Positions 2,264 through 44,575 of a stretch of DNA of 64,000 nucleotides are shown in pieces. Made by a program: the position numbers and the translations under genes. This DNA is from Oscillospiraceae bacterium. Lineage in GTDB: Bacteria > Bacillota > Clostridia > Oscillospirales > UBA644. Location of the stretch: assembly GCA_015067305.1 (NCBI GenBank), contig SVMT01000001.1, positions 28,749-92,748 of the forward strand. Direction: 5' to 3'. Positions within the stretch are counted from its first letter, which is position 1. Each line of letters begins with the position of its first letter. The notes beneath the pieces are model-generated. The model was not told the origin of the DNA. It worked only from the letters and a program-made list of their open reading frames with translations, and did no database searches.

Positions 2264-2274
2264 TTTTGAGATTT

Positions 2275-12344: not shown

Positions 12345-12470
12345 AATTTGTCTCCTTTTATTTATTGGTGTGTTAGGTGTTCCCAAACCCTTTCCAAAAA
12401 AACTTTTAGACTTGGGTTCAAAAATATCTCTATTCTTACTCTGAAAATATTTAGAATTACTAAATCTCAA

Positions 12471-12500
12471 TCCTGCACTCTGCATTTTGCATCCTGCATT
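12471..12500. repeat. TGCA heptad array upstream of dnaN
   Basis: TCCTGCA CTCTGCA TTTTGCA TCCTGCA. The 26-mer 12475-12500 is identical to 18138-18163. Confidence 0.85.
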
Positions 12501-12554
12501 ATACAAATTGTATGTATAATAAAATTTAGTAGTAATAGTAGGCCCTGTGCAAAT

Positions 12555-12677: not shown

Positions 12678-12746
12678 CTGTGTTTGAAACTGTTTATAAG
12701 TCCCTGTTTATATTGTTAATTTGTGTTGATGATTTTGGGGAAATCT

Positions 12747-12806
12747 TGGAAAAACCATTTTTTGTAAAAATAGGTTTTTCCAAACCTTTTCCAAAAAAAC
12801 TTTTAG
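12747..12806. repeat. R1 REP-like hairpin element
   Basis: TGGAAAAACCATTTTTTGTAAAAATAGGTTTTTCCAAACCTTTTCCAAAAAAACTTTTAG. Confidence 0.85.
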
Positions 12807-13019
12807 CGAGCATAGCTCAGAATGATAATTAAAAATATGATAAGCTACCGCTAATAGTGTATCTATTTTTTCCTTTTGGGATATGTAACGAATGTTACGT
12901 ATCCCTCTTGCTTTTCTTTTTGATGGGGTCTTTGATGGGGTCTGGGGAAACTTTTTCTAAAGTATGCAGAGCATATTTGTTCACCCGAAAAGAAAAAGTT
13001 TCCTCAGGAATTCTTGATA

Positions 13020-14759: not shown

Positions 14760-14781
14760 ATATGTTTCCTCCGTAAAAAGG

Positions 14782-14857
14782 TTTTAGGTTACAGGTGTTA
14801 GGTATTAGTTTCTGGGTTTTAGGTTACAAGTAATAAGTATTCACTAACACCTATAAC
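14782..14857. repeat. inverted heptad arrays between the GH36-like paralogs
   Basis: TTTTAGG TTACAGG TGTTAGG TATTAGT TTCTGGG TTTTAGG TTACAAG TAATAAG, then CTAACAC CTATAAC in the opposite sense. Confidence 0.85.
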
Positions 14858-14867
14858 CTACTGAAGC

Positions 14868-16616: not shown

Positions 16617-16648
16617 GTATGATTCTTCACTCTGCATTTTGCATTAAT

Positions 16649-18133: not shown

Positions 18134-18163
18134 TTCCGCACTCTGCATTTTGCATCCTGCATT
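18134..18163. repeat. TGCA heptad array upstream of dnaA
   Basis: TTCCGCA CTCTGCA TTTTGCA TCCTGCA. Shares a 26-mer with 12475-12500 and a 17-mer with 16628-16644. Confidence 0.85.
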
Positions 18164-21207: not shown

Positions 21208-21377
21208 AAATGCAAAGTTCAAAATGCAAAGTGCAGAATTAGGTAATAGAGAAAAAGTTGAGTAGTCAGCCCTGACCCTTAGTTTTTATTCTTTAAGACT
21301 AAAATCTCAAACTGTATTTCACCCTCACCGTCTTTGCGTGGCCATTCATTATTTCCGGAACTGAGTTTGCGGCCTCT

Positions 21378-21509: not shown

Positions 21510-21829
21510 AAATTCCCAATGAATTTTAGGGGAAGGGCACAAGAATCTCTCTTGTTTCCAAAAAGGGATCTAACGCAACCATAAAAGTAGTTACCAAATT
21601 ATCAGCGTCAGCTGTCAGACCTTATTTTGTAAATTCCCACCAACGAGTTTTAGGGGAAAGGGCGCGGGGAAACCCCCTTGTTTCCAAAAAGGGATCTAAC
21701 GCAACCATAAAAGTAGTTACCAAATTATCAGCGTCAGCTGTCAGAACTTATTTTATAAATTCCCACCAACGAGTTTTAGGGGAAAGGGCGCGGGGAAACC
21801 CCCTTGTTCCTAAAAGGGGGTTTCCCCGC
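21510..21829 (+). repeat. 2.6 tandem copies of a 121-126-bp unit in the 5' leader of the 21866 gene
   Basis: Units start at 21510, 21631 and 21757 (AAATTCCCA...). Each carries an R1-type core. The last ends in the complete hairpin GCGGGGAAACCCCC-12 nt-GGGGGTTTCCCCGC (21790-21829). Confidence 0.9.
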
Positions 21830-21865
21830 AAATAAATTACTAAACATATACTAAGGAGCATACAT

Positions 21866-23455
21866 ATGAAAGCTTGTATTATACAGCCGCCATACGGTCG
21901 GGAAACGTCATTTTCCGATGAATTTTTTGAGTTTAAGCTGAAAATGCTTGACGAATGTACCGAAGAACTTGACATTATCGTGCTTCCTGAGTACAGCGAC
22001 GTACCATGCGCTACTGAAAATCTTGAAGATACACTGTTCTGGCATGAAAAATATGCGAAAAAACTCCATGAAAAGTGCAAAAGTACAGCAAAAAGATGTA
22101 ATTCTCTCGTCTTTGTCAATGCTTTGAGCAAGGAAAACAGCGGTTACAGAAATACTACTTTCGCTTACGGCAGAAACGGCGAACTGTTGGGAAAATACTT
22201 CAAAAAACACCTTCCGCCCCTTGAACGTGAAGTCCTGAATCTGGATTCCGATTACACTTTTGAGCCGTCCGAGCCGTTTATTCTGGAGATCGAGGGACTC
22301 AGGTACGCTTTTTTGACTTGCTACGACTTCTATTTTTATGAATCTTTTGCAAATATTGCGCGAAATAATGTGGATATCATCATCGGCTGCTCCCTCCAGC
22401 GAAGCGACTACCACGACGCTATCGAGATCATGTGCCGATTTTTGGCGTACAATACCAACGCCTACGTTTTGCGCAGTTCCGTGAGCTTCGATGAAAACAG
22501 CGAAATTTGCGGCGCAAGTATGGCGGTTTCGCCTTACGGCAAGGTCATTGCGAATATGAAAGGGCGTTTCGGCAAGGAAATCGTTGAATTTGACCCAACG
22601 GACAAGCATTTCAAGCCTGCAGGATTCGGAAATCCGCCTGCGGCACACCATGAATACATCGAATACGGCAGAAAACCCTGGCAATATCGTGTTGGCGGCT
22701 CTTCGACCGTGCCTTTTGAGACTGAAATGAAGTACCCACGCATCTGCGCGCACCGAGGTTTCAGCACCGTTGCCCCCGAAAATACAATGCCCGCATTCGG
22801 TGCCGCCATCGGAATGGGCTCTCAGGAGATCGAATTTGACCTTTGGCCCACCAAGGACGGAGAGATCGTTTCCTGCCACGACCAGACTTTGGAACGAGTC
22901 AGCGATGGCGAGGGTAAAATAACGGAAAAAACATATGATGAGCTGAAAAACCTTGATTTCGGCGCTAAATTCGGCGAAAAATTCTCAGGTCTGCGTATAG
23001 TAAAATTCGAAGAAATTCTGAAAAAATTCGGCGGTCAGACCATAATGAATATCCACATCAAGCCCACAGGCAAGAATTACGACAGAAAAATTATGGAAAA
23101 TATCGTAGGTCTTATCCGCAAATACGACTGCGAGCGCCACGTGTATTTCATGCTTGAAGTTGACGAATACATTCCCATGTTCAAGGAATTTGCTCCGAAA
23201 ATTCCCGTTTGCGTAGGTCATGACAGCGACAGACCCTGGGAGATCGTTGACCGAGCTATCAAGTACGGTGCAGAAAAAGTCCAGCTTTTCAAGCCGTTTT
23301 TCAATGAGGAAATGATCAAAAAAGCCCATGAACACGGCATTATTTGCAATGTCTTCTGGGCAGACGACCCCGACGAGGCTCGCCGCTACATCGACATGGG
23401 CATCGACACGATCCTGACAAACGAGTATAACCTTGTTTCTCAGATCCTGAAATGA
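21866..23455 (+). CDS. fusion protein: carbon-nitrogen hydrolase domain + glycerophosphodiester phosphodiesterase domain
   Basis: 529-aa ORF. The N-terminal half resembles nitrilase-superfamily proteins (IVLPEYS..., LTCYDFYF). The C-terminal half has GDPD motifs ICAHRGFSTVAPENTMPAF and EIEFDLWPTKDGEIVSCHD. Confidence 0.7.
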   Translation: MKACIIQPPYGRETSFSDEFFEFKLKMLDECTEELDIIVLPEYSDVPCATENLEDTLFWHEKYAKKLHEKCKSTAKRCNSLVFVNALSKENSGYRNTTFAYGRNGELLGKYFKKHLPPLEREVLNLDSDYTFEPSEPFILEIEGLRYAFLTCYDFYFYESFANIARNNVDIIIGCSLQRSDYHDAIEIMCRFLAYNTNAYVLRSSVSFDENSEICGASMAVSPYGKVIANMKGRFGKEIVEFDPTDKHFKPAGFGNPPAAHHEYIEYGRKPWQYRVGGSSTVPFETEMKYPRICAHRGFSTVAPENTMPAFGAAIGMGSQEIEFDLWPTKDGEIVSCHDQTLERVSDGEGKITEKTYDELKNLDFGAKFGEKFSGLRIVKFEEILKKFGGQTIMNIHIKPTGKNYDRKIMENIVGLIRKYDCERHVYFMLEVDEYIPMFKEFAPKIPVCVGHDSDRPWEIVDRAIKYGAEKVQLFKPFFNEEMIKKAHEHGIICNVFWADDPDEARRYIDMGIDTILTNEYNLVSQILK

Positions 23456-23499: not shown

Positions 23500-23628
23500 G
23501 ATTATAGAAATTCGAAATTGTATTTCAATAGGGTTGGCTCCATATTAAAGGTGCTTAAACAGCCTGGTTAGTGCTAAAAGAGCCAATCCCATTAAATTTT
23601 CCTTGAAAATTTGTCTATAATCATTATA
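23494..23628. repeat. M135 module copy 1 (15-nt terminal inverted repeats, internal stem-loop)
   Basis: TATAATGATTATAGA (23494-23508) and its exact complement TCTATAATCATTATA (23614-23628). Internal stem AATAGGGTTGGCTC/GAGCCAATCCCATT. An inverted near-identical copy lies at 45772-45912. Confidence 0.85.
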
Positions 23629-23708
23629 ATTAGCTTATAGAAAGTGCAATTAAAGGGTATCAGAACTTATTTTATAAATTCCCCCGCAAAAAAACTCATC
23701 TTAAATTA

Positions 23709-23736
23709 TTCTGCATTCTGCACTTTGCATTTTGCA
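23709..23736. repeat. TGCA heptad array in the mnmE 5' UTR (4 units)
   Basis: TTCTGCA TTCTGCA CTTTGCA TTTTGCA, ending 8 nt before the AAAGGAG RBS. Confidence 0.9.
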
Positions 23737-25103: not shown

Positions 25104-25248
25104 TAGGCCTTAGGCCTTAGGTGTTAGGTGTTAGGCCTTAGTGTAAAATAAATTAAAAAAACAGCTACCGCTAATTTTGTTGCGGTAGCTTTTATAATTA
25201 AAAAACTGTAACCTACTAAAACCTAACACCTAAAGCCTAAGCCCTGTG
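25104..25248. terminator. T1 composite bidirectional terminator element
   Basis: The core hairpin AGCTACCGC-10 nt-GCGGTAGCT (25163-25190) has an A run before it and a T run after it. Its conserved arms are CCTTAGTGTAAAAT... and ...TATAATTAAAAAACTGTAACCT. The whole element is flanked by inverted TTAGG/CCTAA heptads. It lies between convergent mnmE and pflA. Confidence 0.8.
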
Positions 25249-28450: not shown

Positions 28451-28479
28451 ATTATAGCACAAAATTCAAAGAAATACAA
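28451..28479 (-). promoter_or_regulatory. pflB promoter (extended -10)
   Basis: Minus strand reads TTGTAT, 17 nt, TATAAT preceded by TGTGC. It is part of a ~60-nt module also found inverted at 30609-30668. Confidence 0.6.
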
Positions 28480-28523
28480 GAGGTAAAACAGTACATTTTA
28501 GTGCTAAATTATGGAGAGATAGG

Positions 28524-28600
28524 GATTAGGTCATAGGCCTCAGGGGTTAGGCCTTAGGCCATAGGGTTTAGGTATCAGGTATCAGGTATTAGGTGTTAGG
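28524..28600. repeat. heptad array, TTAGG sense, 11 units
   Basis: GATTAGG TCATAGG CCTCAGG GGTTAGG CCTTAGG CCATAGG GTTTAGG TATCAGG TATCAGG TATTAGG TGTTAGG. Exact 7-nt register throughout. Confidence 0.92.
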
Positions 28601-28676
28601 TACATTTACCGATATGCTGAAACCAATCATTCCGTTTTTAAGTTTCGAATTTTTTCTGAATTCGAGGAGATCAATA

Positions 28677-28706
28677 TTGACACCATATATGACACCATGA
28701 TATAAT
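28677..28706 (+). promoter_or_regulatory. hicAB promoter
   Basis: TTGACA 28677-28682, 18-nt spacer ending in TGA (extended -10), TATAAT 28701-28706. Confidence 0.65.
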
Positions 28707-28978: not shown

Positions 28979-29327
28979 TTTTTATATGAATCTTCCTTAT
29001 AAAATGGAGATAATCCCCGATAGTATTGAAGGCGGCTATGTTGTAAAGTTCCCCGAACTTCCAGGTTGCTTGACTTGTTGCAGTTCGATGTCCGATATTG
29101 CTGCTGTTTCTACGGATTGTAAGCGCCAGTGGCTTCTTGCCGCAATGGAGGACGGTTCCGAGATCCCCGAACCAACATCTGCAGACGAATTTTCAGGTCA
29201 GTTCAAACTCCGTCTGCCCAAATCACTCCATAAAACACTTTCGGAAAAATCAAAAGAGGAAGGTGTCAGCATGAATCAATATTGCGTATATCTGCTGACA
29301 AAAAATAATTCCCTTTATACTAAATAG
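28965..29327 (+). CDS. hicB: HicB-family antitoxin with C-terminal RHH-like DNA-binding tail
   Basis: From ATG 28965 (GGAGG upstream): MKTLDFYMNLPYKMEIIPDSIEGGYVVKFPELPGCLTC...FKLRLPKSLHKTLSEKSKEEGVSMNQY. Confidence 0.85.
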   Translation: MKTLDFYMNLPYKMEIIPDSIEGGYVVKFPELPGCLTCCSSMSDIAAVSTDCKRQWLLAAMEDGSEIPEPTSADEFSGQFKLRLPKSLHKTLSEKSKEEGVSMNQYCVYLLTKNNSLYTK

Positions 29328-29457
29328 GCCACAGGATTTAGGCCTTAGTGTAAAATGATATAATAATAAGAGCTACCGCAATATTTTCGTTGCGATAGCT
29401 TCTATAATTAAAAAAATGCAACCTTACTAAACCCTACGGCCTGTGGCCTAACACCTA
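29326..29457. terminator. T1 composite bidirectional terminator element
   Basis: Same architecture as 25104-25248. Core is AGCTACCGC-12 nt-GCGATAGCT (29371-29400), flanked by TTAGG/CCTAA heptads, between convergent hicB and the 29458 ORF. Confidence 0.8.
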
Positions 29458-30060
29458 CTATGCCCTGGTATCTGTAATTACGGCTTGCATATTACCCGTT
29501 TTATTTTCTTTTATCTTCATATTTATCAGTTCCTGAGCCTTTGTCTCTGAGTCGACGGCTAAGACAAAATAAAGATTTTCCTCGGTTTTAGGACAAATAA
29601 GAAGCATTCCTTCACAGGCGTTGACCCATTTTATCTCATTATAACGCAAGTTGAATCTATGCAAAGTTCCCGGTCTGTCTCCGAAGCCGAAATAAATGCC
29701 CTCAATATTTTCTTCTCTGACAAAAACAAATGTATTGCACATTTGCTTAAACGCATAATGATGGGAAAACGGCGTGAATGTATCAAGAAGTATTTTGTTG
29801 ACCCCTGTTTTTAATATTTTGAATTCCTCACTAAAATGTGCTGTCTGCCTTCTTAATAAAGGTTCACGGTCAAAACCACAATAAAGGCAAATATTGCAAT
29901 GTGTAATTTGTCGTCCGCAGTTTTCGCAGAATGTAAACCGTTCTGACCAATCATAAAATTCTTCACCGAACATTTTATAGTATCCGAATTTTTTTATTCT
30001 GAATTCTCTTATGATCTTCCCAAACGCATGTTGGCTTTTCAATGCAACCTTGTACTTCAT
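29458..30060 (-). CDS. hypothetical protein with Cys-rich zinc-ribbon-like segment
   Basis: 200-aa ORF with FCENCGRQITHCNICLYCG. I recognise no family. RBS GAAAGAAGG. It lies 22 nt downstream of the terminator of structured RNA 1. Confidence 0.6.
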   Translation of the reverse strand: MKYKVALKSQHAFGKIIREFRIKKFGYYKMFGEEFYDWSERFTFCENCGRQITHCNICLYCGFDREPLLRRQTAHFSEEFKILKTGVNKILLDTFTPFSHHYAFKQMCNTFVFVREENIEGIYFGFGDRPGTLHRFNLRYNEIKWVNACEGMLLICPKTEENLYFVLAVDSETKAQELINMKIKENKTGNMQAVITDTRA

Positions 30061-30081
30061 AAAATACCTTCTTTCGTTAAT

Positions 30082-30245
30082 AAAAAATGCGCCCCGAAGG
30101 ACGCATGAAAAAATGTTTCCTTCCGTTAGCTGTCACACGAACGTATTTCAAATCACACAAAGGGATTGAGAAGTGAAGAAAACACCTTTTACCAAGGTAT
30201 TTTCCCCTTTATGATTTGAAATAGTAATATTAAATTCGTGTGACA
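30082..30245 (-). ncRNA. structured RNA, copy 1 (~164 nt), unknown family
   Basis: Own promoter at 30251-30279. Long imperfect hairpin (GTCACACGAA.../...TTCGTGTGAC) is capped by a 27-nt apical hairpin (30178-30204) identical in copy 2. Terminator is ATGCGTCC-TTCG-GGGCGCAT plus a U run (30106-30082). Confidence 0.6.
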
Positions 30246-30250
30246 TGATG

Positions 30251-30279
30251 ATTATACCATATTTTATGGGTTTTGTCAA
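30251..30279 (-). promoter_or_regulatory. consensus promoter of structured RNA 1
   Basis: Minus strand reads TTGACA (30279-30274), 17 nt, TATAAT (30256-30251). Confidence 0.75.
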
Positions 30280-30330
30280 TATATAAAGAAAAATAAGATC
30301 TCCTTATCTATTAAAATTAAATTGAGCAAC

Positions 30331-30494
30331 AAAAAATGCGCCCCGAAGGACGCATGAAAAAGTGCTTCCTCCATTGTTACCACGCAATGTATAATCATAT
30401 CTTTCAACGAGATAGGTTATCGAGAGAAAACACCTTTTACCAAGGTATTTTCTCGTTGAAAATATATAATTATACAAATAAGCGTGGTAAGCTT
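30331..30494 (-). ncRNA. structured RNA, copy 2 (~164 nt), paralog of copy 1
   Basis: Own promoter at 30501-30529. Outer stem TTACCACGC/GCGTGGTAA has a different sequence from copy 1 but the same architecture. Apical hairpin (30426-30452) and terminator (30355-30331) are identical to copy 1. Confidence 0.6.
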
Positions 30495-30500
30495 GATTTT

Positions 30501-30529
30501 ATTATAGCATACTTTTGGGGAAATGTCAA
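30501..30529 (-). promoter_or_regulatory. consensus promoter of structured RNA 2
   Basis: Minus strand reads TTGACA (30529-30524), 17 nt, TATAAT (30506-30501). Confidence 0.75.
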
Positions 30530-30568
30530 GATACAAAGGGCTTCGAAGATTAAAGTTATAATTAAAAC

Positions 30569-30596
30569 CTAATACCTAAAACCTAGCACCTAAACC
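30569..30596. repeat. heptad array, CCTAA sense (4 units)
   Basis: CTAATAC CTAAAAC CTAGCAC CTAAACC. Inverted relative to array 28524-28600 at the other edge of the islet. Confidence 0.88.
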
Positions 30597-30639
30597 CTAT
30601 TGAAGCCTAATTTAGCACTAAAATGTACTGATTTCTCCA

Positions 30640-30668
30640 TTGTATTTCTCTTAATTTTGTGCTATAAT
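30640..30668 (+). promoter_or_regulatory. secA promoter (extended -10)
   Basis: TTGTAT 30640-30645, 17 nt, TATAAT 30663-30668 preceded by TGTGC. Confidence 0.6.
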
Positions 30669-30732: not shown

Positions 30733-33474
30733 ATGGGACTTTTTGATTTCTTTGGAAATTACAGCAAAAAAGAGCTGAAAAAGATCGATCCGATCATCAA
30801 AAAAATAAATGCATTGGAGCCTGACTTCCAAAAGCTTACAGATGCGGAACTCCGCAACAAAACAGAAGAATTCAAGAAACGTTACGCAGAGGGCGAAAGC
30901 CTCGATTCCATGCTCCCCGAAGCTTTTGCGACGGTGAGAGAGGGGGCGGTACGTGTTCTCGGCATGAGACATTACGACTGCCAGCTTATCGGCGGTATCA
31001 TTCTGCATCAGGGCAGAATTGCGGAAATGAAAACAGGTGAAGGTAAGACACTTGTGGCTACTCTTCCTTGTTACCTCAATGCGCTTACAGGAAAAGGCGT
31101 CCATGTTGTTACAGTCAATGAATACCTTGCACGCCGTGACAGCGAGTGGATGGGCAAAGTTTACAGATTTTTAGGTCTTTCCGTCGGTATTATTTCCCAC
31201 GACATGAATAACGACGACCGCAGAAAAGCTTATGCCGCTGATATTACTTACGGTACAAACAACGAATACGGCTTCGACTATCTCCGTGATAATATGGTTC
31301 TTTATAAGGAACACATGGTTCAGAGAGGTCATGCTTTTGCTATCGTGGACGAAGTTGACTCTATCCTCATTGATGAAGCAAGAACTCCTCTTATTATTTC
31401 AGGTCAGGGCGACCAGAGCGACGATATGTACGAAAAAGCAAATGCTTTCGTAAAAAGACTGAGATGCTTGCGTGTAAAAGAGATCGACAACAAGGAATCC
31501 ACCGATAATATTGCCGAAGATTACATCGTTGACGAGAAAAACAAGACTGCTGTTCTGACCAAAAACGGTATCGAAAAGGCTCAGAGAGTTTTCAATGTGG
31601 AAAACTACGCAGATTCCGCAAATGTTGAACTCCAGCACTATATCAATCAGGCGATCAAAGCTCACGGCACAATGCAGAGAGATGTTGACTACGTTGTGAA
31701 AGACGGCGAAGTTATTATCGTTGACGAATTTACAGGTCGTCTGATGTACGGCAGAAGATTCTCCAACGGTCTGCACCAGTCCATCGAAGCAAAAGAGGGC
31801 GTAAAGATCGAAAACGAATCCAAGACCCTTGCAACTATAACTTTCCAGAACTACTTCAGAATTTACGGAAAACTTTCAGGTATGACAGGTACGGCGCTGA
31901 CTGAAGAAGAGGAATTCAAGGAGATATACTCCCTTGACGTTATTGAAATTCCCACAAACAAGCCAATGATACGTATGGATAATAACGACCAGATCTACAA
32001 GACAGAAATGGGAAAATTCAACGCAGTTGTAGGAAAGATCAAAGAATGTAACGAAAAAGGGCAGCCTGTTCTCGTTGGTACGGTTACTATTGAAAAATCC
32101 GAACTTCTCAGCAAAATATTGAAAAAAGAAGGCATCAAACATAATGTTTTGAACGCAAAATACCACGAAAAAGAAGCGTCCATCATTGCTCAGGCAGGTA
32201 AAAAAGGCGCTGTGACCATTGCCACAAACATGGCAGGTCGTGGTACGGACATCATGCTTGGCGGTAACACCGAATATCTGGCAAAAGCGCAGATGGAAAA
32301 AGAGGGCTTTGAACATGACCTCATCGTTGAAGCTACGGGCAAAGCTGATACAAATGACGAAAATATCCTCAATGCGAGAGCAAGATACGAAGAGCTTTAT
32401 GCGCAGTTCAAACCTGTTGTTGAAGCTGAAGCGGAAGAAGTTAAGGCTGCCGGAGGTCTTTGCATCATCGGTACGGAAAGACACGAATCACGCCGAATCG
32501 ACAATCAGCTCCGCGGACGTTCAGGCCGACAGGGTGACGTGGGCGAAAGTACCTTCTTCCTTTCCCTTGAAGACGACCTTCTGAGACTTTTCGGCGGCGA
32601 AAGAGTTTCCCGCATGGCTGAAATGATGAATCTGCCCGAAGATGAAGCCATTGACGCAAAAATTCTCTCAAATGCTATTGAAAATGCACAGAAAAAGGTT
32701 GAAAGCGTAAACTTTGCACGCAGAAAACGTGTCCTTGAATACGACGATGTTATCAACCAGCAGAGACATATTATTTACGAACAGAGAAGACAGGTCCTTG
32801 ACGGTGAAGACCTTAGAGCCACAGTTCTCAAGATGCTCGACGATGTTATATCCAATGCGGAAGAGCAGTTTATGGCAGACGAACAGCCCATAAACTGGGA
32901 TTTTGAAGGTCTCCGTCAGCGTTTCATGGGTATTTTCCTCGGAAAAGACGATTTCAGATACAGCGATGAAGAACTCACAAAGCTCAAGAAAAAGGATGTT
33001 GACGAATTCCTCCGCGGCAGAGCAAAAGAAGCGTATGAGCGCAGTGAAAACGACAACACACCCGAAAAAATGCGTGAACTTGAACGTGTTGTATTGCTGA
33101 AGACCGTTGACAAATATTGGATGGAACACATCGACGCAATGGATGACCTGAAACAAGGTATTTCACTCCGTGCGTACAGCAACCGTGACCCCGTTCTTGA
33201 ATACAAATTTGAAAGTTTTGACATGTTCGACGAAATGATAAATACTATCAAATTCGAGACTGTCAGAAACTGCATCTGCCTCAGAATAGTGCGTCCTGAA
33301 ATGATCCAGCGTCGTTCTGTTGCAAGACCAGCCGATCCTGCCACAACAGCAGGCATGGGCGGCGGACCAAAAGAACCTGTAAAGAAAAATTCCACAGAAA
33401 AAGTGGGCAGAAATGACCCCTGTCCCTGCGGAAGCGGCAAAAAGTACAAAAAATGCTGCGGAGCGAATGAATAG
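30733..33474 (+). CDS. secA: preprotein translocase ATPase SecA
   Basis: 913-aa ORF with [14 protein letters not shown] (Walker A), [31 protein letters not shown] and C-terminal Zn finger [13 protein letters not shown]. Confidence 0.97.
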
Positions 33475-33790
33475 GGCTTAGGTATTAGGTTATAGGTGTT
33501 AGTTTTGGTAAGGTTACAATTTTTTAATTATAAAAGGGGCTGGCTCATTTAGCGCAGAACAAAAGCCCCCCTTGAAATTTAAGACAATTTTTAACTAAAA
33601 AAATACTGTCCATATTTTTAAAATGTTGAAATCCACCGAATTTTCGGTGGATTCCTTCAATTATATGGGGCTTTTTAGTCTCGATTTGGCTCTCTACCGT
33701 ACCCACGTACGCCGACGAGAACCAAATCGCGCCTTCTGCATCTAACTGAGCTACCCCCTGTTTTTTATCTATTTTACACTAAGGTCGAAA
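33473..33790. repeat. expanded T1-type element with ~220-nt nested core
   Basis: Arms AGGTTACAATTTTTTAATTATAAAAG (33511-) and CTGTTTTTTATCTATTTTACACTAAGG (-33784) match the arms of 25104-25248 in inverted order. The core is bounded by imperfect inverted repeats GGGGCTGGCTCATTTAGCGCAGAA (33536-33559) and TTCTGCATCTAACTGAGCTACCCCC (33734-33758), and holds the extra hairpin 33628-33655. Confidence 0.7.
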
Positions 33791-33835
33791 TTCTAAAACT
33801 TAACTTTGAAATAATTGTTGCACCGCCCCGATGTC

Positions 33836-33864
33836 TTGACATTTCATTGATTTTGGTGTACAAT
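33836..33864 (+). promoter_or_regulatory. comM promoter
   Basis: TTGACA 33836-33841, 17 nt, TACAAT 33859-33864. Confidence 0.6.
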
Positions 33865-33902
33865 ATATGTATGTTATAATAGGTAAAGAAAAGAGGGGCA
33901 AT

Positions 33903-35447
33903 ATGGTCTCAAAAGTTAACAGTATCGGGTTGGAAGGTCTGGACGGCTACGTTATTGAAGTCGAAACAGATACACGTCCTGCGGCGGAGACACGTACTGA
34001 TGTGGTAGGCTTGCCTGACACCAGCGTAAAAGAAGCGATGAACCGTGTCCGTTCCGCAATTTACAACAACCGCTATCGTATCCCCGAATGTAATATAATC
34101 ACAAACCTTGCCCCTGCGTCCATCAAAAAAGAGGGCACGGTTTACGACCTGCCCATACTTCTCGGTATTCTCATTTCCACGGGTCAGTTACCTCAGGTCA
34201 GCCCAAAAGCCGCTTTTATCGGTGAACTTTCCCTTTCGGGCGAGCTTCGTCCCTGTTTCGGAGTGCTTGCATCGGTAATTTCCGCAAGAAATCACGGTTT
34301 TGAGGAGATTTTCGTGCCTGCCCAGAACGCCGACGAGGGCGCAGTTATTGAAGGTATAAATGTTTATCCTGTGGAAAACATTTCTCAGCTTGCGGATCAC
34401 ATCAAGGGTGAGAATCTGATAAGTCCGTTGAAACGTGATCTTTCTCAGCTTCGCCACGATGCACAGCTTGGATTTTCCGATTTCTCCGCAATAGTAGGTC
34501 AGCACGGCGCAAAACGTGCCTGCGAGATCGCAGCAGCAGGCGGTCACAATATTCTGCTCATCGGTCCTCCCGGTACGGGCAAAAGCATGATAGCTAAAAG
34601 CCTTCCCTCGATCTTGCCTGAAATGACTTTTGACGAAATGATAGAATGCAGTAAGGTCTATTCGATCGCAGGAAAACTCACCAAGGATAAACCTCTTGTT
34701 GTGACACGTCCCTTTGTCAAGTCGAATCAGAATGTTTCCATTGCAAGTATGACGGGTGGCGGCTCTTCTCCCACACCGGGACTTATTTCTCTTGCGCACA
34801 ATGGTGTGCTTTTTCTCGATGAAATAGCGGAATTTTCGGTAAAACTCCTGGAAACTCTCCGCCAACCACTTGAGGATAACACCGTCACCGTCAACCGTGT
34901 GAAGCGTACCGTGACTTTCCCCTCGGCGTTTATGCTTGTATGTGCAATGAATCCTTGCCCTTGCGGTAACTACGGACACCCGACTTTGCGCTGTACTTGC
35001 ACGCCTCAGCAGGTGGAAAAATATATGAACCGAATTTCAGGACCTCTTCTTGACCGTATTGATCTTCAGGTTGAGATGCCGCCCGTTCCAATCAAGGAGA
35101 TAAAATCCGCCAGACCTGCGGAAACCAGCGCCGAGATCAAAAAACGTGTTGACAGAGCACGTCAGATCCAGCAGGAACGCTACAAAAACGAAAATTTCAA
35201 CTGCAACGCAAAAATGTCGCCTGCCGCAATACGTCAGCATTGCCACCTCACGGACAAGGCTACGCAAGTGCTTTCAGATGTTTTTGAGAAAACGGCGCTT
35301 TCCATGCGTGCATATGATAAGCTCATCAAAATAGGCAGGACTATTGCCGACCTTGAAGGCAAAGAGACCGTGGAAGCCGACCACATTTCCGAAGCAGTAT
35401 ATTTCCGCAGTCTCGACAAAAAGTATTGGAATCGGACTATCGTCTGA
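33903..35447 (+). CDS. comM: YifB/ComM family Mg-chelatase-like AAA+ ATPase
   Basis: From ATG 33903: MVSKVNSIGLEGLDGYVIEVE..., Walker A LLIGPPGTGKSM, GVLFLDEIAEF and Zn-binding MNPCPCGNYG. Confidence 0.9.
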   Translation: MVSKVNSIGLEGLDGYVIEVETDTRPAAETRTDVVGLPDTSVKEAMNRVRSAIYNNRYRIPECNIITNLAPASIKKEGTVYDLPILLGILISTGQLPQVSPKAAFIGELSLSGELRPCFGVLASVISARNHGFEEIFVPAQNADEGAVIEGINVYPVENISQLADHIKGENLISPLKRDLSQLRHDAQLGFSDFSAIVGQHGAKRACEIAAAGGHNILLIGPPGTGKSMIAKSLPSILPEMTFDEMIECSKVYSIAGKLTKDKPLVVTRPFVKSNQNVSIASMTGGGSSPTPGLISLAHNGVLFLDEIAEFSVKLLETLRQPLEDNTVTVNRVKRTVTFPSAFMLVCAMNPCPCGNYGHPTLRCTCTPQQVEKYMNRISGPLLDRIDLQVEMPPVPIKEIKSARPAETSAEIKKRVDRARQIQQERYKNENFNCNAKMSPAAIRQHCHLTDKATQVLSDVFEKTALSMRAYDKLIKIGRTIADLEGKETVEADHISEAVYFRSLDKKYWNRTIV

Positions 35448-35470
35448 GCCCCAAAAAGAAAGGCAAATTT

Positions 35471-36328
35471 ATGAATAAATTTTTCAAAACAGCAGGAGTG
35501 ATTCTAATGTCTTTTTTCCTCACTTTCGGAGCAACTCCCACAAAGGCAACCGATTCAGTTTCAGGCTATATCAGCCGTTACACAGTCAACACATCAGGCA
35601 GGGCAGAGTGGACAGGTGCGGAAGGTACGACCGTTTCTTCAAATTCCGTTGAACGCAACGGCAAAAACGTAATATCTTTCAATTCAGGTAAAGGAAATAC
35701 CTCACTCAGCGCATCTTTTCAGGTGACTTCCATGCCCACTGTGGAATTTGACGTTACTACTCTCTCTTTGAAATTGCTTCTTTATATTGATGATATTTCC
35801 GCGATCAAAGCCCGTGACGGCAGTTTCCTTGGTGGAGAGATCGGTTTTTACGGTAAAAAGATCTATACTACTGAAACCGAACCTGTTGAGGGTGAAGAAC
35901 CTACAGTCATTTTTGCCGAAGAGCCTGTTTTTTATAAATGGGATCTTGGTGATATTTCCCTCAAAAAGGGCTGGAACAGATTGACACTTAATTTCAAAAC
36001 GGCTGAAACCGATAATGTTGTCAACGATTTCACTTTTGAGGGTATCACGGAATTCCGCATAACCGCCAACAAAAACAGTGCCGCAAACCTGACTGTAGCG
36101 CTTGATAACACGGAAGTCTGCGTTCTCAGCATTGCCGAGGACGGAAAAGTTATCGAACCCATAACTGATACCCACACAGCCAAGGAAATTGCGGTTGCCG
36201 CAGGAATTGCCGTTGCACTTGTCGGCGGAGTCTCTGCCGTATGCTATGCAATGGCGAAAAAGGAAGAAAAACGTCGTATCCGTGAACGCCGCGCGAGAAT
36301 CCTTGCACGGAAACAGAATAGGGAATAG
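35471..36328 (+). CDS. hypothetical secreted protein with C-terminal membrane anchor
   Basis: From ATG 35471: signal-like MNKFFKTAGVILMSFFLTFGATPTKA, C-terminal TM AVAAGIAVALVGGVSAVCYAM and a basic tail. No family recognised. Confidence 0.55.
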   Translation: MNKFFKTAGVILMSFFLTFGATPTKATDSVSGYISRYTVNTSGRAEWTGAEGTTVSSNSVERNGKNVISFNSGKGNTSLSASFQVTSMPTVEFDVTTLSLKLLLYIDDISAIKARDGSFLGGEIGFYGKKIYTTETEPVEGEEPTVIFAEEPVFYKWDLGDISLKKGWNRLTLNFKTAETDNVVNDFTFEGITEFRITANKNSAANLTVALDNTEVCVLSIAEDGKVIEPITDTHTAKEIAVAAGIAVALVGGVSAVCYAMAKKEEKRRIRERRARILARKQNRE

Positions 36329-36391
36329 TTTTTAGGTATTAGCGACAAACTGAGATCTGATGTCGAACCGTCTGATATGTTATATTAGCAA

Positions 36392-38227: not shown

Positions 38228-38548
38228 TCATTTTACGATCTTTGGCAGATCGTCAGGTTCAATAAAATAGATCCCCTTATCGGCAGACTCAAGCAGTTTG
38301 CCGATCTTTTTATCCTCATCTGTCATTTCTTCACTGCAAACGATTATGTCTTCTCCAAAACCGTTTCGTCTGAACCTGTTCAGAACTTCCGAACAAAATC
38401 CTTCAAGATTTTTTGTATGCGGAACGCACAGGATATATATTCGTCCTTCAACTTTACCTCCGCCGTATATCTTCATTATCTCATTTATCATGACCCACAG
38501 CCCCATTATTGCCAGCCCGATAATCAAACATTGAAAAAACAGTTCCAT
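38228..38548 (-). CDS. hypothetical small membrane-anchored protein
   Basis: 106-aa ORF with an N-terminal hydrophobic helix. No obvious SD sequence. Its stop lies 1 nt from the convergent upstream gene's stop. Confidence 0.4.
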   Translation of the reverse strand: MELFFQCLIIGLAIMGLWVMINEIMKIYGGGKVEGRIYILCVPHTKNLEGFCSEVLNRFRRNGFGEDIIVCSEEMTDEDKKIGKLLESADKGIYFIEPDDLPKIVK

Positions 38549-38559
38549 ATAATTACAAA

Positions 38560-38575
38560 TGTTTCACGTGAAACA
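38560..38575. promoter_or_regulatory. parS site
   Basis: TGTTTCACGTGAAACA, a perfect match to the Firmicute parS palindrome. Confidence 0.9.
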
Positions 38576-38640
38576 TTCTCTCCTTTCAAGAATTTGTACT
38601 GTTCACTATATACTATGTGGATTCGACAGATTTCGTGAAT

Positions 38641-38765: not shown

Positions 38766-39542
38766 TTGACAAAGATAATTGCCGTCGCCAACCAGAAAGG
38801 CGGCGTTGGAAAAACCACTACCGCCGTCAATCTCAGCGCATGTGTTGCGGAGAAACACGGCAAAAAAGTCCTTCTCATAGATCTTGACCCTCAGGGCAAT
38901 GCAACTTCGGGTTGTGGCGTGAATAAAAAACAAGCGTCCCCCACAATCTATGACCTGCTTCTGGCTGATGAACTTACTTCAGACGATATTAAAACGGGTA
39001 TAAAGGAAACGAAATTCAAGAACCTCTCGATCTTGCCTTCCACCATGGAGCTTGTTGGCGCAGAAATTGAACTGACCGATGCGACCAAGAGGGAACAGCG
39101 AATTAAACGTATTACGGACAAGCTTTTTGATTACGATTATATTTTTATTGACTGTCCTCCGTCTTTGGGACTTATGACCTTGAATGCTCTGACAGCCGCT
39201 GACAGCGTTCTGATCCCGATCCAGTGTGAATTTTATGCTCTTGAAGGTCTTTCTCAGCTGACGAATACTATCAGACAGGTAAAAAAACACTACAATGCGG
39301 CACTGCAGATCGAAGGTGTGCTTGTTACCATGTATGACGGCAGATTGAATCTGACAATGCAGGTCCTCGCAGAATTGAAAAAATATTTTGCTGACAAAAT
39401 GTATAAAACGGTAATTCCACGAAATGTCCGCATTTCAGAAGCTCCGTCTCACGGTATGCCCATAAACTATTACGATAAATTTGCTAAAGGAGCTTCGGCT
39501 TACTATCAGCTTGCGGAGGAGTTTCTTGGCCGTCAGAAATAA
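38766..39542 (+). CDS. parA: chromosome partitioning ATPase ParA/Soj
   Basis: From TTG 38766: TKIIAVANQKGGVGKTTTAVNLSA (deviant Walker A) and IFIDCPPSLG. The ORF track starts earlier, at 38694. Confidence 0.92.
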   Translation: MTKIIAVANQKGGVGKTTTAVNLSACVAEKHGKKVLLIDLDPQGNATSGCGVNKKQASPTIYDLLLADELTSDDIKTGIKETKFKNLSILPSTMELVGAEIELTDATKREQRIKRITDKLFDYDYIFIDCPPSLGLMTLNALTAADSVLIPIQCEFYALEGLSQLTNTIRQVKKHYNAALQIEGVLVTMYDGRLNLTMQVLAELKKYFADKMYKTVIPRNVRISEAPSHGMPINYYDKFAKGASAYYQLAEEFLGRQK

Positions 39543-39558
39543 TGTTTCACGTGAAACA
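39543..39558. promoter_or_regulatory. parS site
   Basis: TGTTTCACGTGAAACA, perfect, in the parA-parB spacer. Confidence 0.9.
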
Positions 39559-39593
39559 TTTCAAATTATAAATCAGAAAACAAGGTGAAATAT

Positions 39594-40484
39594 ATGAAAA
39601 AATCCGGTTTAGGGCGTGGACTTGACGCGTTGTTTGCGGATAACGAGATCGAAACCGAAGGCTCGGCAAAAGACGGAATGACATTGCGAATTTCCGACAT
39701 TGAACCAAACAAGGCTCAGCCGAGAAAGCATTTCGATAAAGAAGCTTTGGAAGAATTGGCTTCGTCAATACGCGAACACGGTCTGCTTCAGCCCATCATT
39801 GTACGTAAAGTCGATGATAAATATCAGATAATTTCCGGTGAACGCCGCTGGAGAGCCTGTCGTATGGCAGGACTTGTGGAAGTCCCCGTAATATTAAAGG
39901 AACTTGACGACAAGCAGGCTTTGGAAATCGGTCTTATCGAAAACCTCCAGCGTGAAGACCTGAATATTCTCGAAGAAGCCGAGGGTTATAAATCTTTGAT
40001 TGAAGATTTCGGCATGACGCAAGAGGAAATATCCAAAAGGGTAGGGAAGTCCCGTCCCGTTGTTGCAAACGCAATGCGAATTCTGGCGTTGCCTGAGGCG
40101 ATACTTTCCTATGTGTCCGTTGGAAAATTAACTTCCGGTCACGCCCGTGCGCTTCTTGCTCTTTCCAAGTACTGCGATGAGGTTCAGCTTATAGATATCG
40201 CAAATGAGGCTGTAGATAAGAATCTGTCCGTCCGTGAGCTTGAAAATATGGCAAAACGCATGGAGAAAAATGCTGAAGCAAAGGAAAAACCTCTTCCCGA
40301 AAAGAAAGATGAGGATATTTATTTCAAAGAGATCGCCGAGGACCTTTCAAATAAGTGGGGTCGCAAGGTGAAAATTTCCTCCGCCTCAAAAGGCGGTAAA
40401 GTTAAAGGCACGGTAGAATTTGAGTTCTACGACAACGAAGATTTTAATAATTTACTTGATATAATTTCAAAAAAGGTAAGGTAA
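39594..40484 (+). CDS. parB: chromosome partitioning protein ParB/Spo0J
   Basis: MKKSGLGRGLDALF..., PNKAQPRKHFD, QPIIVRK, GERRWRA and HTH region EEISKRVGKSRPVVANAMR. Confidence 0.93.
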   Translation: MKKSGLGRGLDALFADNEIETEGSAKDGMTLRISDIEPNKAQPRKHFDKEALEELASSIREHGLLQPIIVRKVDDKYQIISGERRWRACRMAGLVEVPVILKELDDKQALEIGLIENLQREDLNILEEAEGYKSLIEDFGMTQEEISKRVGKSRPVVANAMRILALPEAILSYVSVGKLTSGHARALLALSKYCDEVQLIDIANEAVDKNLSVRELENMAKRMEKNAEAKEKPLPEKKDEDIYFKEIAEDLSNKWGRKVKISSASKGGKVKGTVEFEFYDNEDFNNLLDIISKKVR

Positions 40485-41785: not shown

Positions 41786-42045
41786 ATTTAAAGGGAGAGG
41801 GTATTCTTTTCGCGTGAAAAGAATACCCTCTCCCTTAGACCCTCACCCAAGAAAAGCGGGTGGGAATAAATGCAAAGTGCAAAACGCAGAATGCAAAATT
41901 GGTAACACTTGTTTCCGCCAACTCAAACTTAATCTTTGCAAAAAACTTGTTTATTTCGATACGAAGATCTTTTTGAAGAATCTTGTTTCGGTTTTCTTTC
42001 TGAAAGGGTTTAAGGGAAAACTTTTTCTTTTTTCGTGAAAAGAAA
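41786..42045. repeat. ~260-bp direct repeat, left copy (flanks the GH43 gene)
   Basis: Near-identical to 44315-44575. Contains R2 hairpin 41793-41834, a TGCA heptad block (41868-41900) and a truncated second R2 hairpin. Confidence 0.9.
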
Positions 42046-44314: not shown

Positions 44315-44575
44315 ATTTAAAGGAAGAGGGGCTTCTTTTCGCGTGAAAAGAAGCCCCTCTCCCTCAGACCCTCACCCAAGAAAAGCGGATGGGAATAAAT
44401 GCAAAGTGCAAAACGCAGAATGCAAAATTGGTAACACTTGTTTCCGCCAACTCAAACTTAATCTTTGCAAAAAACTTGCTTATTTCGATACGAAGATCTT
44501 TTTGAAGAATCTTGTTTCGGTTTTCTTTTTGAAAGGGTTTAAGGGAAAACTTTTTCTTTTTCCGCGAAAAGAAGA
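44315..44575. repeat. ~260-bp direct repeat, right copy
   Basis: Matches 41786-42045. Hairpin 44322-44363 differs from 41793-41834 by two compensatory base-pair changes. Confidence 0.9.

Follow-up and report, generated by a model that had tools for sequence, protein, structure and literature searches.

The window analyzed here, a stretch of 64,000 nt of contig SVMT01000001.1 from an uncultured Oscillospiraceae bacterium of the gut or rumen, is 86% coding and carries a family of tandem 7-nt repeats with a TAGG core. A tolerant caller finds 16 TAGG arrays comprising 95 heptads, compared with 0–4 arrays each (mean about 0.5) in 20 mononucleotide shuffles, and the pattern TAGGNNNTAGGNNNTAGG has 20 matches where 100 dinucleotide shuffles give an expectation of 0.00. 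The arrays are 3 to 12 units long and 643 of their 665 bases are non-coding; the remaining 22 fall within the ends of called ORFs. Self-similarity in the window gives 13 blocks at lag 7 and 0 at lags 5, 6, 8, and 9, TRF detects a period of 7 along with higher-order periods at its multiples 14, 21, and 28 nt, and the 7-nt register is kept in every array, with no indels. The strict 7-nt period described in the original prediction is thus borne out, as is the existence of every array site that it listed, and the array that it placed at 28524 has 12 units rather than 11.

The array consensus is YAGG-Y-N-W, and the heptad logo reads T.86, A.97, G.97, G.85, T.63, N (0.1 bit), T.67. Position 6 is nearly free (0.06–0.1 bit). 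Because the G at position 4 is mostly followed by T or C at position 5, G-runs are GG only. CAGG makes up 9–13% of the units, and GAGG units are also present. Most arrays mix 3–5 different units, where a strict SSR would have near-perfect units throughout; these are degenerate tandem heptads with a conserved core.

Eleven of the 16 arrays are UAGG-sense and start 0–7 nt from a stop codon or contain one. Some supply the stop themselves: unit 1 of the array at 1066–1107 (minus strand, 6 units) is the TAG stop of the Metallophos gene (1105–2205), unit 1 at 29325–29352 (plus strand, 4 units) that of hicB, unit 1 at 33472–33506 (plus strand, 5 units) that of secA, and unit 2 of the degenerate array at 36319–36346 (plus strand, 4 units) that of ORF 35426–36328. 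Others follow the stop closely. The solitary array at 10108–10149 (minus strand, 6 units), for which no structure is predicted (MFE 0), starts at the recF TAA; those at 25104–25145 (plus strand, 6 units) and 29423–29457 (minus strand, 5 units) begin 0 nt past the mnmE TGA and the TAG of ORF 29458–30060, respectively; that at 25212–25246 (minus strand, 5 units) lies 4 nt past the pflA stop; and the 3 units at 14840–14860 (minus strand) lie 7 nt past the stop of the GH36-like gene at 14868–16637. Eight partly degenerate units at 55655–55710 (minus strand) overlap the TGA stop of a 51-aa ORF that is publicly called at 55702–55857 on the minus strand. The predicted placement of a UAG-sense arm at the stop codon was confirmed for every gene just named.

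Three arrays in the window are CCUA-sense in the mRNA and end 17–24 nt before a start codon. The first, at 2230–2264 (plus strand, 5 units; CCUA-sense in minus-strand mRNA), lies 10 nt past the SIR2 stop and 24 nt ahead of the Metallophos start, and is the distant inverted partner of the array at 1066–1107. The second (14778–14826, plus strand, 7 units) ends 18 nt ahead of the start of the GH36-like gene at 13020–14759, and the third (55592–55654, plus strand, 9 units) ends 17 nt ahead of the start of the gene at 54807–55574.

From the flagship array of 12 units (28520–28603, plus strand), the PFL start is 90 nt away, and the −35 box of the hicA promoter lies 74 nt downstream. The array serves as one arm of a 106-nt inverted repeat whose other arm is 30563–30668. 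A promoter module, TTGTAT-17-TGCTATAAT (28451–28519, minus strand), faces PFL and has an inverted copy at 30600–30668 (plus strand), upstream of and facing secA; the 5 units at 30565–30599 (minus strand, CCTA on the plus strand) stand upstream of this secA module and mirror the flagship array. Judging from consensus promoter matches, the flagship array appears to lie between two divergent promoters, in a non-transcribed spacer.

Opposed arrays do form long imperfect hairpins in predicted folds, as had been proposed, with energies of −23 to −65 kcal/mol (z −4 to −9), among them folds of −45 to −65 kcal/mol (z −6 to −9); the 14840–14860 array, for example, pairs with part of 14778–14826 (−22.9 kcal/mol). 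The accompanying statement that arrays nearly always come as inverted pairs was too strong: there are 4 local pairs, taking in 8 of the 16 arrays, 2 distant pairs spaced 1.1 and 2 kb with genes bracketed between them, and 4 solitary arrays. Nor is hairpin formation the organizing principle of the arrays, because partner arms are unequal (7 vs 3 units, 10 vs 3) and show no excess of complementarity at spacer positions (0.44–0.78, vs 0.59 ± 0.16 for non-partners).

At three places the array hairpins enclose canonical hairpin and T-run terminators, and some arrays serve as arms in copies of a dispersed palindromic cassette that measures about 130–150 nt. Between mnmE and pflA, where 25104–25145 forms the left arm and 25212–25246 the right, the tip of the long hairpin is a central hairpin, AGCTACCGC-N10-GCGGTAGCT (25163–25190), flanked by an upstream A-tract and a downstream T-run and interpreted here as a putative bidirectional intrinsic terminator. 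The terminator scanner, which takes loops of 3–8 nt only, missed this hairpin, and it was found by reading the sequence and the folds. The scanner did find the central terminator hairpin of a second cassette, AGCTACCGC / GCGATAGCT (29371–29400, reported as 29400–29371), which has 29325–29352 as its left arm and 29423–29457 as its right. A third copy of the AGCTACCGC/GCGGTAGCT hairpin, again read from sequence and folds, lies at 54671–54698 and is adjoined by an array of 5 GCC-type units (54618–54652, plus strand) without a right arm, so that AGCTACCGC...GCGGTAGCT with A- and T-tracts is present in three copies in the window. A G+C-rich hairpin with a T-run is found in the central hairpins only; the arrays themselves are not terminators, and T-type arrays are predicted to be wholly unstructured (MFE 0).

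Rfam searches, of the whole window at the gathering threshold and of 30040–30600 and 33470–33870 at an E-value threshold, gave nothing above the gathering score, and ARAGORN found no tRNA in the window. The cassette junction CCTTAGTGTAAAAT gave chance matches only among those listed from a metagenome collection, none with arrays or the hairpin, since this 14-mer is too short a query for that collection. The intergenic regions of the window that hold arrays are also crowded with several unrelated families of repeats.

What unifies the arrays is their polarity, in that the G-rich strand has its 5′ end against an ORF boundary. In the window, the median distance to the nearest ORF boundary is 5.5 nt from the 5′ end of the G-strand and 134 nt from its 3′ end (14 of 16 arrays), and this holds independently of hairpin partners. 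In sense, this boundary is a stop codon, often one that the array supplies; otherwise it is the RBS of the next gene, and the array is CCUA in the mRNA. As an out-of-sample test, the rule holds for 3 of 3 new arrays on the same strain's contig beyond the window. A new array starts 3 nt past the ackA stop, and two CCUA-sense arrays just outside the window end 17–18 nt before a start codon, one such array also providing the TAA stop of the upstream gene. Five arrays (3 in the window and 2 outside) are therefore CCUA-sense in mRNA directly upstream of an RBS, and the RNA there has no UAG.

A second heptad family in the window, TGCANNN, has 13 arrays where about 0.15 are expected. It contains no G-runs and shows the same polarity, with 21 nt from the 5′ end and 218 nt from the 3′ end.

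The polarity also extends to many phyla. Among the matches listed, which are a sample of the taxonomic spread and not a census, 104 TAGG arrays from about 100 genomes lie 8.5 nt (5′ end) vs 115.5 nt (3′ end) from the nearest boundary (83:21). Within these same listed matches, 54 of 70 sense-stop cases fall within 25 nt, ORFs that end inside an array do so at −3, −10, and −17 nt with about equal frequency, inverted pairs have the TAGG arm first by 30:2, and the polarity is alike in cyanobacteria and other phyla; each genome has its own heptamer, and many of these are perfect SSRs. Random placement genome-wide had been named by the original prediction as grounds against itself; in the window and in the cross-phylum sample, the arrays are non-random relative to ORF boundaries. 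Replication orientation does not account for the polarity, as both array orientations occur on either side of the dnaA/oriC region. All-frame fail-safe stops were also rejected as the selected feature, given the CAGG and GAGG units, a T1 that is less conserved than A2 and G3, and some arrays that close only 2 frames.

Arrays are present in two relatives, L127 (94% MnmE identity) and L128 (90%). Three loci at 88–89% MnmE identity, 60 kb together and two of them largely the same sequence, have no arrays, and neither does an 11-kb locus at 66% identity; these array-free relatives have ordinary terminators after the same stop positions. Beyond the window lineage, assemblies GCA_052830545.1 and GCA_045637625.1 bear arrays, and GCA_054266135.1 and GCA_017440085.1 are among the array-free relatives. 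On the sequences compared, the arrays are lineage-specific. Their junctions are exactly at stop codons, and protein length is the same as in the array-free relatives. The secA array has 5 units in the window and 9 at the orthologous position in L128; both ends are common to the two, which differ by internal 7/14-nt duplications. The mnmE array has 6 units in the window and about 8 in L127, whose copy is closer to the window's hicB copy than to the window's mnmE copy. Array length evidently changes by internal duplication of 7- or 14-nt blocks. Arrays hold orthologous positions in two species whose DNA identity is only about 84%. The strain contigs recovered are all at least 99.6% identical to the window (most at least 99.9%), with no variation in unit number among them.

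Heptanucleotide repeats of bacteria have been known since 1990 and their over-representation was shown in 2007, and we know of no accepted function for them. The present family, with its consensus YAGG-Y-N-W, is a new addition to this class. Its closest precedents include the cyanobacterial STRR repeats, reportedly described by Mazel and colleagues in 1990, which resemble it in that several tandem heptamer families coexist at about one locus per few kb, intergenic, lineage-specific, and with no function assigned. The STRR units (CCCCAGT, TTGGTCA, CAACAGT) differ from those here, belong to another phylum, and are usually near-perfect. Palindromes of the REP/BIME, ERIC, BOX, and Correia type, which can act as terminators or mRNA stabilizers, are likewise dispersed and imperfect and lie at gene 3′ ends or between cistrons. 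However, REP/BIME-type elements have fixed-length, non-periodic arms and, for REP, a RAYT transposase, whereas the arms here consist of tandem heptads whose number varies, and many arrays are solitary; in place of a 20–40-nt palindrome with a GTAG head and a RAYT, the units here are 7-nt direct repeats.

The GGGNATC heptamers (GGGAATC / GGGGAYT) of Xanthomonas and Nostoc have the same positional grammar, in which the G-rich strand either is on the coding strand, overlapping the stop or 0–50 nt away from it, or is on the non-coding strand directly ahead of ORFs, and no function was found for them (Rehm et al. 2015; PMC4692102). These G-rich SSRs share with our arrays tandem 7-nt units at many dispersed intergenic loci, a position nearer the 5′ neighboring ORF whichever way that ORF points, the possibility of inverted pairs, and length and sequence that vary at the same loci between close relatives. 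They differ in being near-perfect, where the units here are degenerate at 1–3 positions, and in their core, which here is TAGG with two Gs. Further differences are the host (an uncultured Clostridia lineage), the arrays that serve as arms of a terminator cassette, and the coexisting TGCA-core family with the same grammar. The TAACTGA direct repeats of Beggiatoaceae, cyanobacteria, and Bacteroidetes, for which the all-frame-stop argument was made, are a third precedent, and a nucleic-acid-binding protein was suspected for them and not found (MacGregor 2015; PMC4679880). They too are arrays of heptamers that, in one orientation, close all three frames with stops, which limits their overlap with ORF ends to 18 nt at most, and they too are predicted to be unstructured and have a patchy phylogenetic spread. 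The TAACTGA arrays are near-perfect and mostly precede start codons by a few nt, whereas here stop codons dominate.

We tentatively favor, with a confidence that approaches but does not reach an even chance, the reading that the TTAGGNN arrays are STRR-like, lineage-specific heptanucleotide repeats that are born by slippage, filtered by orientation, and reinforce or insulate terminators, and that they are not a ligand-controlled switch of the HutP/TRAP type. The repeats would be born by replication slippage and would spread together with the cassette, and selection would purge copies that are misplaced or wrongly oriented. G-sense copies would close all three frames with stops and bring in SD-like AGG motifs, and so would be tolerated past stops and not ahead of start codons. 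We infer such an orientation filter for the stop-proximal copies; SD/anti-SD mimicry is a possible component of it. A Rho-based filter fails, because cyanobacteria, which to our knowledge have no Rho, show the same polarity. The effect in cis would be structural, an unstructured G/U tract being added to the 3′ UTR. Where opposed arrays meet, they may contribute 20–35 additional imperfect base pairs around the terminator hairpin, and the outcome would be a reinforced two-way terminator or insulator between neighboring transcription units. Several points weigh against this account. The hairpin role is weak, because half of the arrays lack a partner close by, arms are unequal, and there is no extra complementarity. 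The flagship array, if it does lie in a non-transcribed spacer as the consensus promoter matches suggest, also speaks against it. In addition, the occurrence of A and G in 97% of units each, with position 6 free, is not what neutral decay of slippage repeats should give, and it hints at sequence-specific reading.

The strongest competitor, though one we consider rather unlikely, is that the arrays are selfish or neutral microsatellite-like DNA with no function in cis, whose position and polarity mark only the sites where it does no harm. Their patchy, lineage-specific distribution and fast turnover fit this view, as do arms without covariation, the company of unrelated repeat families, the intrusion on ORF ends in all three phases, and the failure of either published study to find a function (PMC4692102; PMC4679880). 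However, arrays are tied to ORF boundaries, to within a few nt, at one end only, which calls for directional growth or selection, and the core positions are unequally conserved; the retention of orthologous positions between the two species at about 84% DNA identity also argues against it.

Less likely again is a periodic binding platform, in which an oligomeric RNA- or non-template-ssDNA-binding protein, HutP-like or of another family, would read YAG(G) every 7 nt on transcripts leaving ORFs and terminate, mark, or stabilize them. HutP recognizes UAG-N4, and the part of the original prediction that compared the arrays with HutP sites holds as far as spacing goes: like HutP and TRAP sites the arrays have NAG triplets at fixed spacing, and they contain at least 3 UAG with 4-nt spacers. 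The conserved A and G with a free spacer position, the strict register, the absence of predicted structure in T-type arrays, a polarity that is kept across phyla irrespective of hairpin partners, and a TGCANNN family that follows the same grammar with a different 4-nt core would all suit such a reader. The context does not fit HutP. Sites of HutP and TRAP lie in the 5′ leaders of single operons, where they compete with a terminator or antiterminator, whereas the arrays overlap no such leader terminator and instead follow the stops of about ten unrelated genes or sit upstream of promoters, and some are in CCUA sense. A parallel with TRAP fails at the spacing itself, since TRAP binds 9–11 (G/U)AG with 2–3 nt spacers (a period of 5–6) and the spacing here is always 4 nt, with period 7. 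A Pfam scan of 50 window ORFs gave no match to HutP, TRAP, RRM, or CSD, and HutP is, as far as we know, absent from some phyla that show the same array grammar. Against any platform of this kind stand also the five arrays that are CCUA-sense in mRNA, the unrelated housekeeping genes that precede the arrays and do not form one regulon, the sister lineages wholly without arrays, the 12-unit array that appears to lie upstream of both consensus promoters, and the genome-specific heptamers, many of them perfect SSRs, which argue against one conserved reader. A regulatory switch of the HutP/TRAP type is not supported by anything we found. CsrA (GGA), Hfq, and Rho-rut were considered as well and, judged from general knowledge, misfit the core, the period, or the cyanobacterial data.

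More general is the idea of an ORF-exit signal common to many phyla. A polymerase leaving an ORF, at the 3′ end in sense or at the 5′ end in antisense, would first transcribe purine/G-rich heptads, and an oligomeric factor or the transcription/translation machinery would read the 7-nt register to stop or mark the transcript. We regard this as improbable; if it were true, this Clostridia lineage, with two core families and array-free sisters, would be a natural system for finding the reader.

We are still more doubtful that the arrays belong to a MITE-like element, a non-autonomous transposon with TA or stop codons as its targets, TAGG...CCTA arms as its terminal inverted repeats, and its own terminator aboard. 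TIR-like arms and dispersed cassette copies are indeed seen, with at least 5 related copies of array, module, and AGCTACCGC hairpin at different gene ends (in the window, L127, and L128), and both the exact junctions at stop codons with unchanged protein length and the affinity of the L127 mnmE copy to the window's hicB copy are in keeping with transposition. Yet arm length ranges between 3 and 12 units, many arrays are solitary and belong to no cassette, and no clear target-site duplication was identified; the Pfam scan of 50 window ORFs detected no transposase and no Y1 transposase domain, and perfect SSRs in other phyla follow the same grammar. That the repeats form G-quadruplexes, as proposed for the GGGNATC heptamers, whose positional grammar they share (PMC4692102) and with whose G-rich strand on the coding side they agree, is scarcely credible: a stable G4 is unlikely because the TAGG core has only two Gs, short of four runs of at least 3 G, and the TGCA family keeps the same grammar without G-runs. 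Two-tetrad quadruplexes with 5-nt loops are weak in any case.

The window shows bacterial heptanucleotide repeats in an unusually clear form. Two heptad families whose 4-nt cores differ follow a single positional grammar, array junctions coincide exactly with stop codons and ribosome-binding sites, sisters at about 89% protein identity have ordinary terminators at the same positions, and the grammar reappears for TAGG-type arrays in about 100 genomes of many phyla. An old curiosity thereby becomes a testable choice between a general orientation filter acting on slippage-born repeats and a conserved factor that reads periodic YAGG. For practical purposes, arrays of this kind provide or overlap stop codons and break metagenome assemblies, and they should be expected at the 3′ ends of genes when MAGs are annotated.

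Arrays of tandem TAGGNNN heptads are a real and strictly 7-nt-periodic feature of the window, as the original prediction had it, and a caller that tolerates one mismatch in the core recovers every array position named there. This caller finds 16 arrays with 95 units, against about 0.5 arrays in shuffled sequence; TAGGNNN three times in succession has 20 matches in the window where 0.00 are expected, and lag 7 is the sole lag with self-similarity blocks (13, vs 0 at lags 5, 6, 8 and 9). TRF periods for the arrays include 14, 21 and 28 nt. The array at window 28520-28603(+) has 12 heptads, TAGGGAT TAGGTCA TAGGCCT CAGGGGT TAGGCCT TAGGCCA TAGGGTT TAGGTAT CAGGTAT CAGGTAT TAGGTGT TAGGTAC. The pooled heptad logo (T.86, A.97, G.97, G.85, T.63, N, T.67) gives YAGG as the true core: A and G both occur in 97% of units, and one position is fully free. 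The window is 86% coding, and the arrays overlap called ORFs by 22 of their 665 bases, all at the extreme ORF end.

Read in the TAGG-strand sense (G-sense, UAGG in mRNA), 11 arrays contain a stop codon or begin 0-7 nt past one. The stop codon is the first or second array unit in the Metallophos gene, recF (TAA), hicB, secA and ORF 35426-36328; an array-formed TGA closes the publicly called 51-aa ORF; and the arrays after mnmE, pflA, ORF 29458-30060 and the GH36-like gene 14868-16637 start 0, 4, 0 and 7 nt past the stop, respectively. The proximity of the UAG-sense arm to a stop codon, predicted for all of these except the Metallophos gene, is confirmed in every case. Arrays supply the TAG in five of the nine TAG-terminated window genes of at least 100 aa, and in a sixth, ORF 29458-30060, the array comes directly after the stop. 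The C-sense arrays (CCUA in mRNA) at 2230, 14778 and 55592 stop 24, 18 and 17 nt short of a start codon, directly against the RBS.

Polarity, not hairpins, is the unifying rule, and it covers both stops (G-sense) and starts (C-sense). With the G-rich strand as reference, the median distance to the nearest ORF boundary is 5.5 nt for array 5' ends and 134 nt for 3' ends, a relation that holds in 14/16 window arrays. An out-of-sample test on the same strain's 213-kb contig, past both window ends, found the rule obeyed by 3/3 new arrays: one begins 3 nt past the ackA stop, and the other two are C-sense and stop short of a start codon, by 18 nt for the 8-unit array, which fills a 59-nt intercistronic gap and gives the upstream gene its TAA stop, and by 17 nt for the 10-unit array. 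Another family, TGCANNN, also keeps strictly to a 7-nt period and has TGCA as its invariant core; it forms 13 arrays in the window vs about 0.15 expected in shuffles (3131-3148, 9019-9131, 9247-9264, 12474-12512, 16626-16643, 18137-18161, 21211-21235, 23712-23736, 41871-41895, 44400-44424, 52437-52468 and 53201-53225). Its polarity is like that of TAGG (21 vs 218 nt), with purine-rich AATGCAR past stops and pyrimidine-rich YTGCATT ahead of the RBS, and such arrays lie directly upstream of the RBS at mnmE, gyrB and ispF.

When 185,579 species genomes were scanned for five TAGGNNN units, at least 120 loci matched; the scan picked intact cores, used simple longest-ORF gene calls, and is a sample, not a census. 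The matches listed include cyanobacteria, Planctomycetota, Bacteroidota, Acidobacteriota, Fibrobacter, Proteobacteria, Negativicutes and others, and about half of them are near-perfect SSRs and about half degenerate like the window arrays. Among these listed matches, the 104 scorable arrays have median distances of 8.5 vs 115.5 nt (83:21), and the pattern is alike in cyanobacteria and other phyla. Where the 5' ORF is co-oriented, its stop is no more than 25 nt away in 54 of 70 listed arrays (median 3 nt), and in 33 cases the ORF stops on a TAG belonging to one of the first three units, split roughly evenly between them; in the opposite orientation 13 of the 120 lie that near. Listed inverted pairs are TAGG-arm-first by 30:2. 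We also note degenerate TAGG(T/C)NT arrays much like those of the window, starting at stop codons, in bacteria of the rumen and gut that belong to three other phyla (L029, L077 and L084, Fibrobacter MAGs; L105, Quinella; L082, Prevotellaceae), a likeness that could reflect convergence or exchange within one habitat.

The arrays were also thought to come nearly always as inverted pairs, which holds for 8 of the 16. Four local pairs, in the order TAGG-arm, loop, CCTA-arm, have strong predicted stems (-23 to -65 kcal/mol, z -4 to -9), and no structure is predicted for lone T-type arrays (MFE 0); GCC-type arrays self-pair via AGGCCT. A dispersed module of A-tract, AGCTACCGC-loop-GCGGTAGCT and T-tract forms the loop at three places, and we read it as a canonical bidirectional intrinsic terminator. 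Convergent mRNAs in such array-terminator-array cassettes would normally end at the central hairpin, each keeping only its own UAGG arm. Hairpin pairing is rejected as the cause of the polarity rule, since the arms are of unequal length, locus L252 has a short G-arm of a different sub-type beside its 10-unit partner, and at the variable positions partner arms are no more complementary than arbitrary array pairs (0.44-0.78 vs 0.59 +/- 0.16).

In relatives that lack the arrays, SecA and MnmE have the same C-terminal residue position, a TAA stop and, after it, an unrelated ordinary terminator; array and module therefore start exactly at the stop codon with protein length unchanged. Lag-7 blocks are absent from MnmE relatives at 88-89% identity (three 18-21 kb loci, two of them largely the same sequence) and from one at 66%. 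The 94% relative L127 has a cassette at the same mnmE site with different units and one 3-nt register break. The secA stop array has 9 units in the 90% relative L128 vs 5 in the window; the first unit and last three are common to both, and the differences are duplications of 7 and 14 nt inside the array, the signature of slippage. Six further metagenome samples yielded contigs with identical arrays; all of these match the window at 99.6% identity or above, and most at 99.9% or above.

The TAGG arrays share their positional grammar with the GGGAATC/GGGGAYT heptamers of Xanthomonas and Nostoc, which lie 0-50 nt from or over a stop on the coding strand, or on the non-coding strand just ahead of ORFs, closer to the 5' neighboring ORF in either orientation; those repeats differ between relatives, and their function was not found (Rehm et al. 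2015, PMC4692102). An all-frame-stop heptamer, as MacGregor noted, can run into an ORF end by no more than 18 nt, and that study suspected an undiscovered binding protein (MacGregor 2015, PMC4679880); a Nostoc preprint reports that heptamer repeats alter reporter expression, without a mechanism. The TAGG family has the defining features of this known class of heptameric repeats save near-perfect unit identity, and we count it as a member. Tests for TRAP sites, REP/BIME and G4 repeats all came out negative, and with HutP sites the family shares only the spacing; no evidence was found for the HutP/TRAP-like reading put forward originally, and the 50 window ORFs scanned against Pfam include no HutP or TRAP match.

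The established features are heptad register, unequal core conservation, intergenic confinement, polarity, stop and RBS junctions, slippage-type length change and cassette copies around intrinsic terminators. Our best explanation, which we hold tentatively, is that of slippage-born, orientation-filtered repeats, partly cassette-spread, with a cis effect on 3' UTRs and terminators. The repeats would arise by slippage, in part spread with the terminator cassette, and persist only at sites and in an orientation where they are harmless; because they have AGG motifs as well as stops in as many as three frames, G-sense copies would be tolerated past stops and not ahead of start codons. In cis they may lengthen the 3' UTR and clamp bidirectional terminators. 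That the arrays are purely selfish DNA is rather doubtful. It is unlikely that something reads YAGG periodically, and we keep this idea alive because the slippage model leaves unexplained the invariance of AG and the one-ended anchoring, the latter lasting in cyanobacteria. An origin as a MITE is improbable, and a G4 role very highly so. The case is valuable for its clean contrasts in nature, namely two core families, sister lineages without arrays and exact junctions, and for the generality of the polarity rule across phyla.

The 12-unit array lies between a PFL promoter module and a consensus hicA promoter (28677-28706), and mirrors the array at 30565-30599 inside a 106-nt inverted repeat (28451-28556 vs 30563-30668, 78% complementary) whose outer ends consist of near-identical promoter modules, one directed at PFL and the other at secA; these promoters are consensus matches, not mapped ones. 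The PFL operon and secA are co-oriented in relatives L124 and L128, and therefore an inversion or insertion occurred in the window lineage. The repeat encloses hicA-hicB, ORF 29458-30060 and two tandem copies of about 250 nt (30080-30530, minus strand). In each copy, a perfect TTGACA-17-TATAAT promoter with TG extension and a strong terminator (ATGCGTCCTTCGGGGCGCAT plus T-run) enclose about 150 nt of structured sequence. The two resemble small-RNA or leader units, and had only sub-threshold Rfam matches (Phe_leader, E 0.02). Downstream of secA (33660-33760, minus strand), a tRNA-like sequence (AGGGGGTAGCTCAGTTAGATGCAG...), without an ARAGORN call or Rfam match, has on either side one half of an inverted terminator-cassette module, and GCGGTAGCT, the hairpin arm of the cassette, is itself similar to a tRNA 5' end.

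The window contains the replication-origin region, with rpmH, rnpA, yidC, jag and mnmE on one side and dnaA, dnaN, recF, gyrB and gyrA on the other. Its MnmE is 88% identical to a "MAG: Clostridia bacterium" protein and 54% to a Ruminococcaceae MAG protein, and identical copies of window genes occur in metagenome assemblies only; the host therefore belongs to an uncultured lineage of Clostridia. Between dnaA and dnaN, which are directly adjacent in relative L126, the window has an insertion of two GH36/melibiase-like paralogues (13020-14759 and 14868-16637, about 72-82% DNA identity). The parA/soj gene is flanked by two copies of TGTTTCACGTGAAACA (38548-38582 and 39536-39570), which we take to resemble the parS consensus, and parB follows (39585-40484). 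A 67-nt intergenic hairpin element, GGGAAAACC...GGTTTTCCC then CCTTTCCAAAAAAACTTTT, has six copies at gene ends (854-920, 9546-9612, 12347-12413, 12744-12810, 45507-45573 and 49747-49813). A 126-bp tandem repeat (21516-21883, 2.4-2.9 copies, GGGGAAACCCCC hairpin core) lies upstream of a CN_hydrolase/GDPD gene, and a 113-nt inverted repeat (23518-23630 vs 45762-45874) is 95% complementary with arms 22 kb apart. A 262-bp direct repeat at 52446-52897 (L252 3663-4642) adjoins a 23S rRNA intervening-sequence protein gene and varies in copy number among metagenome contigs otherwise 99.6-99.9% identical, among which 0 TAGG arrays differ. Finally, a complete MmeI-family Type IIL restriction-modification gene (58256-61015) is followed by a 32-nt tandem repeat (61096-61180, 2.7 copies, GTACGGGTTTTGGGGTTAAGGTACAAAGTAA).
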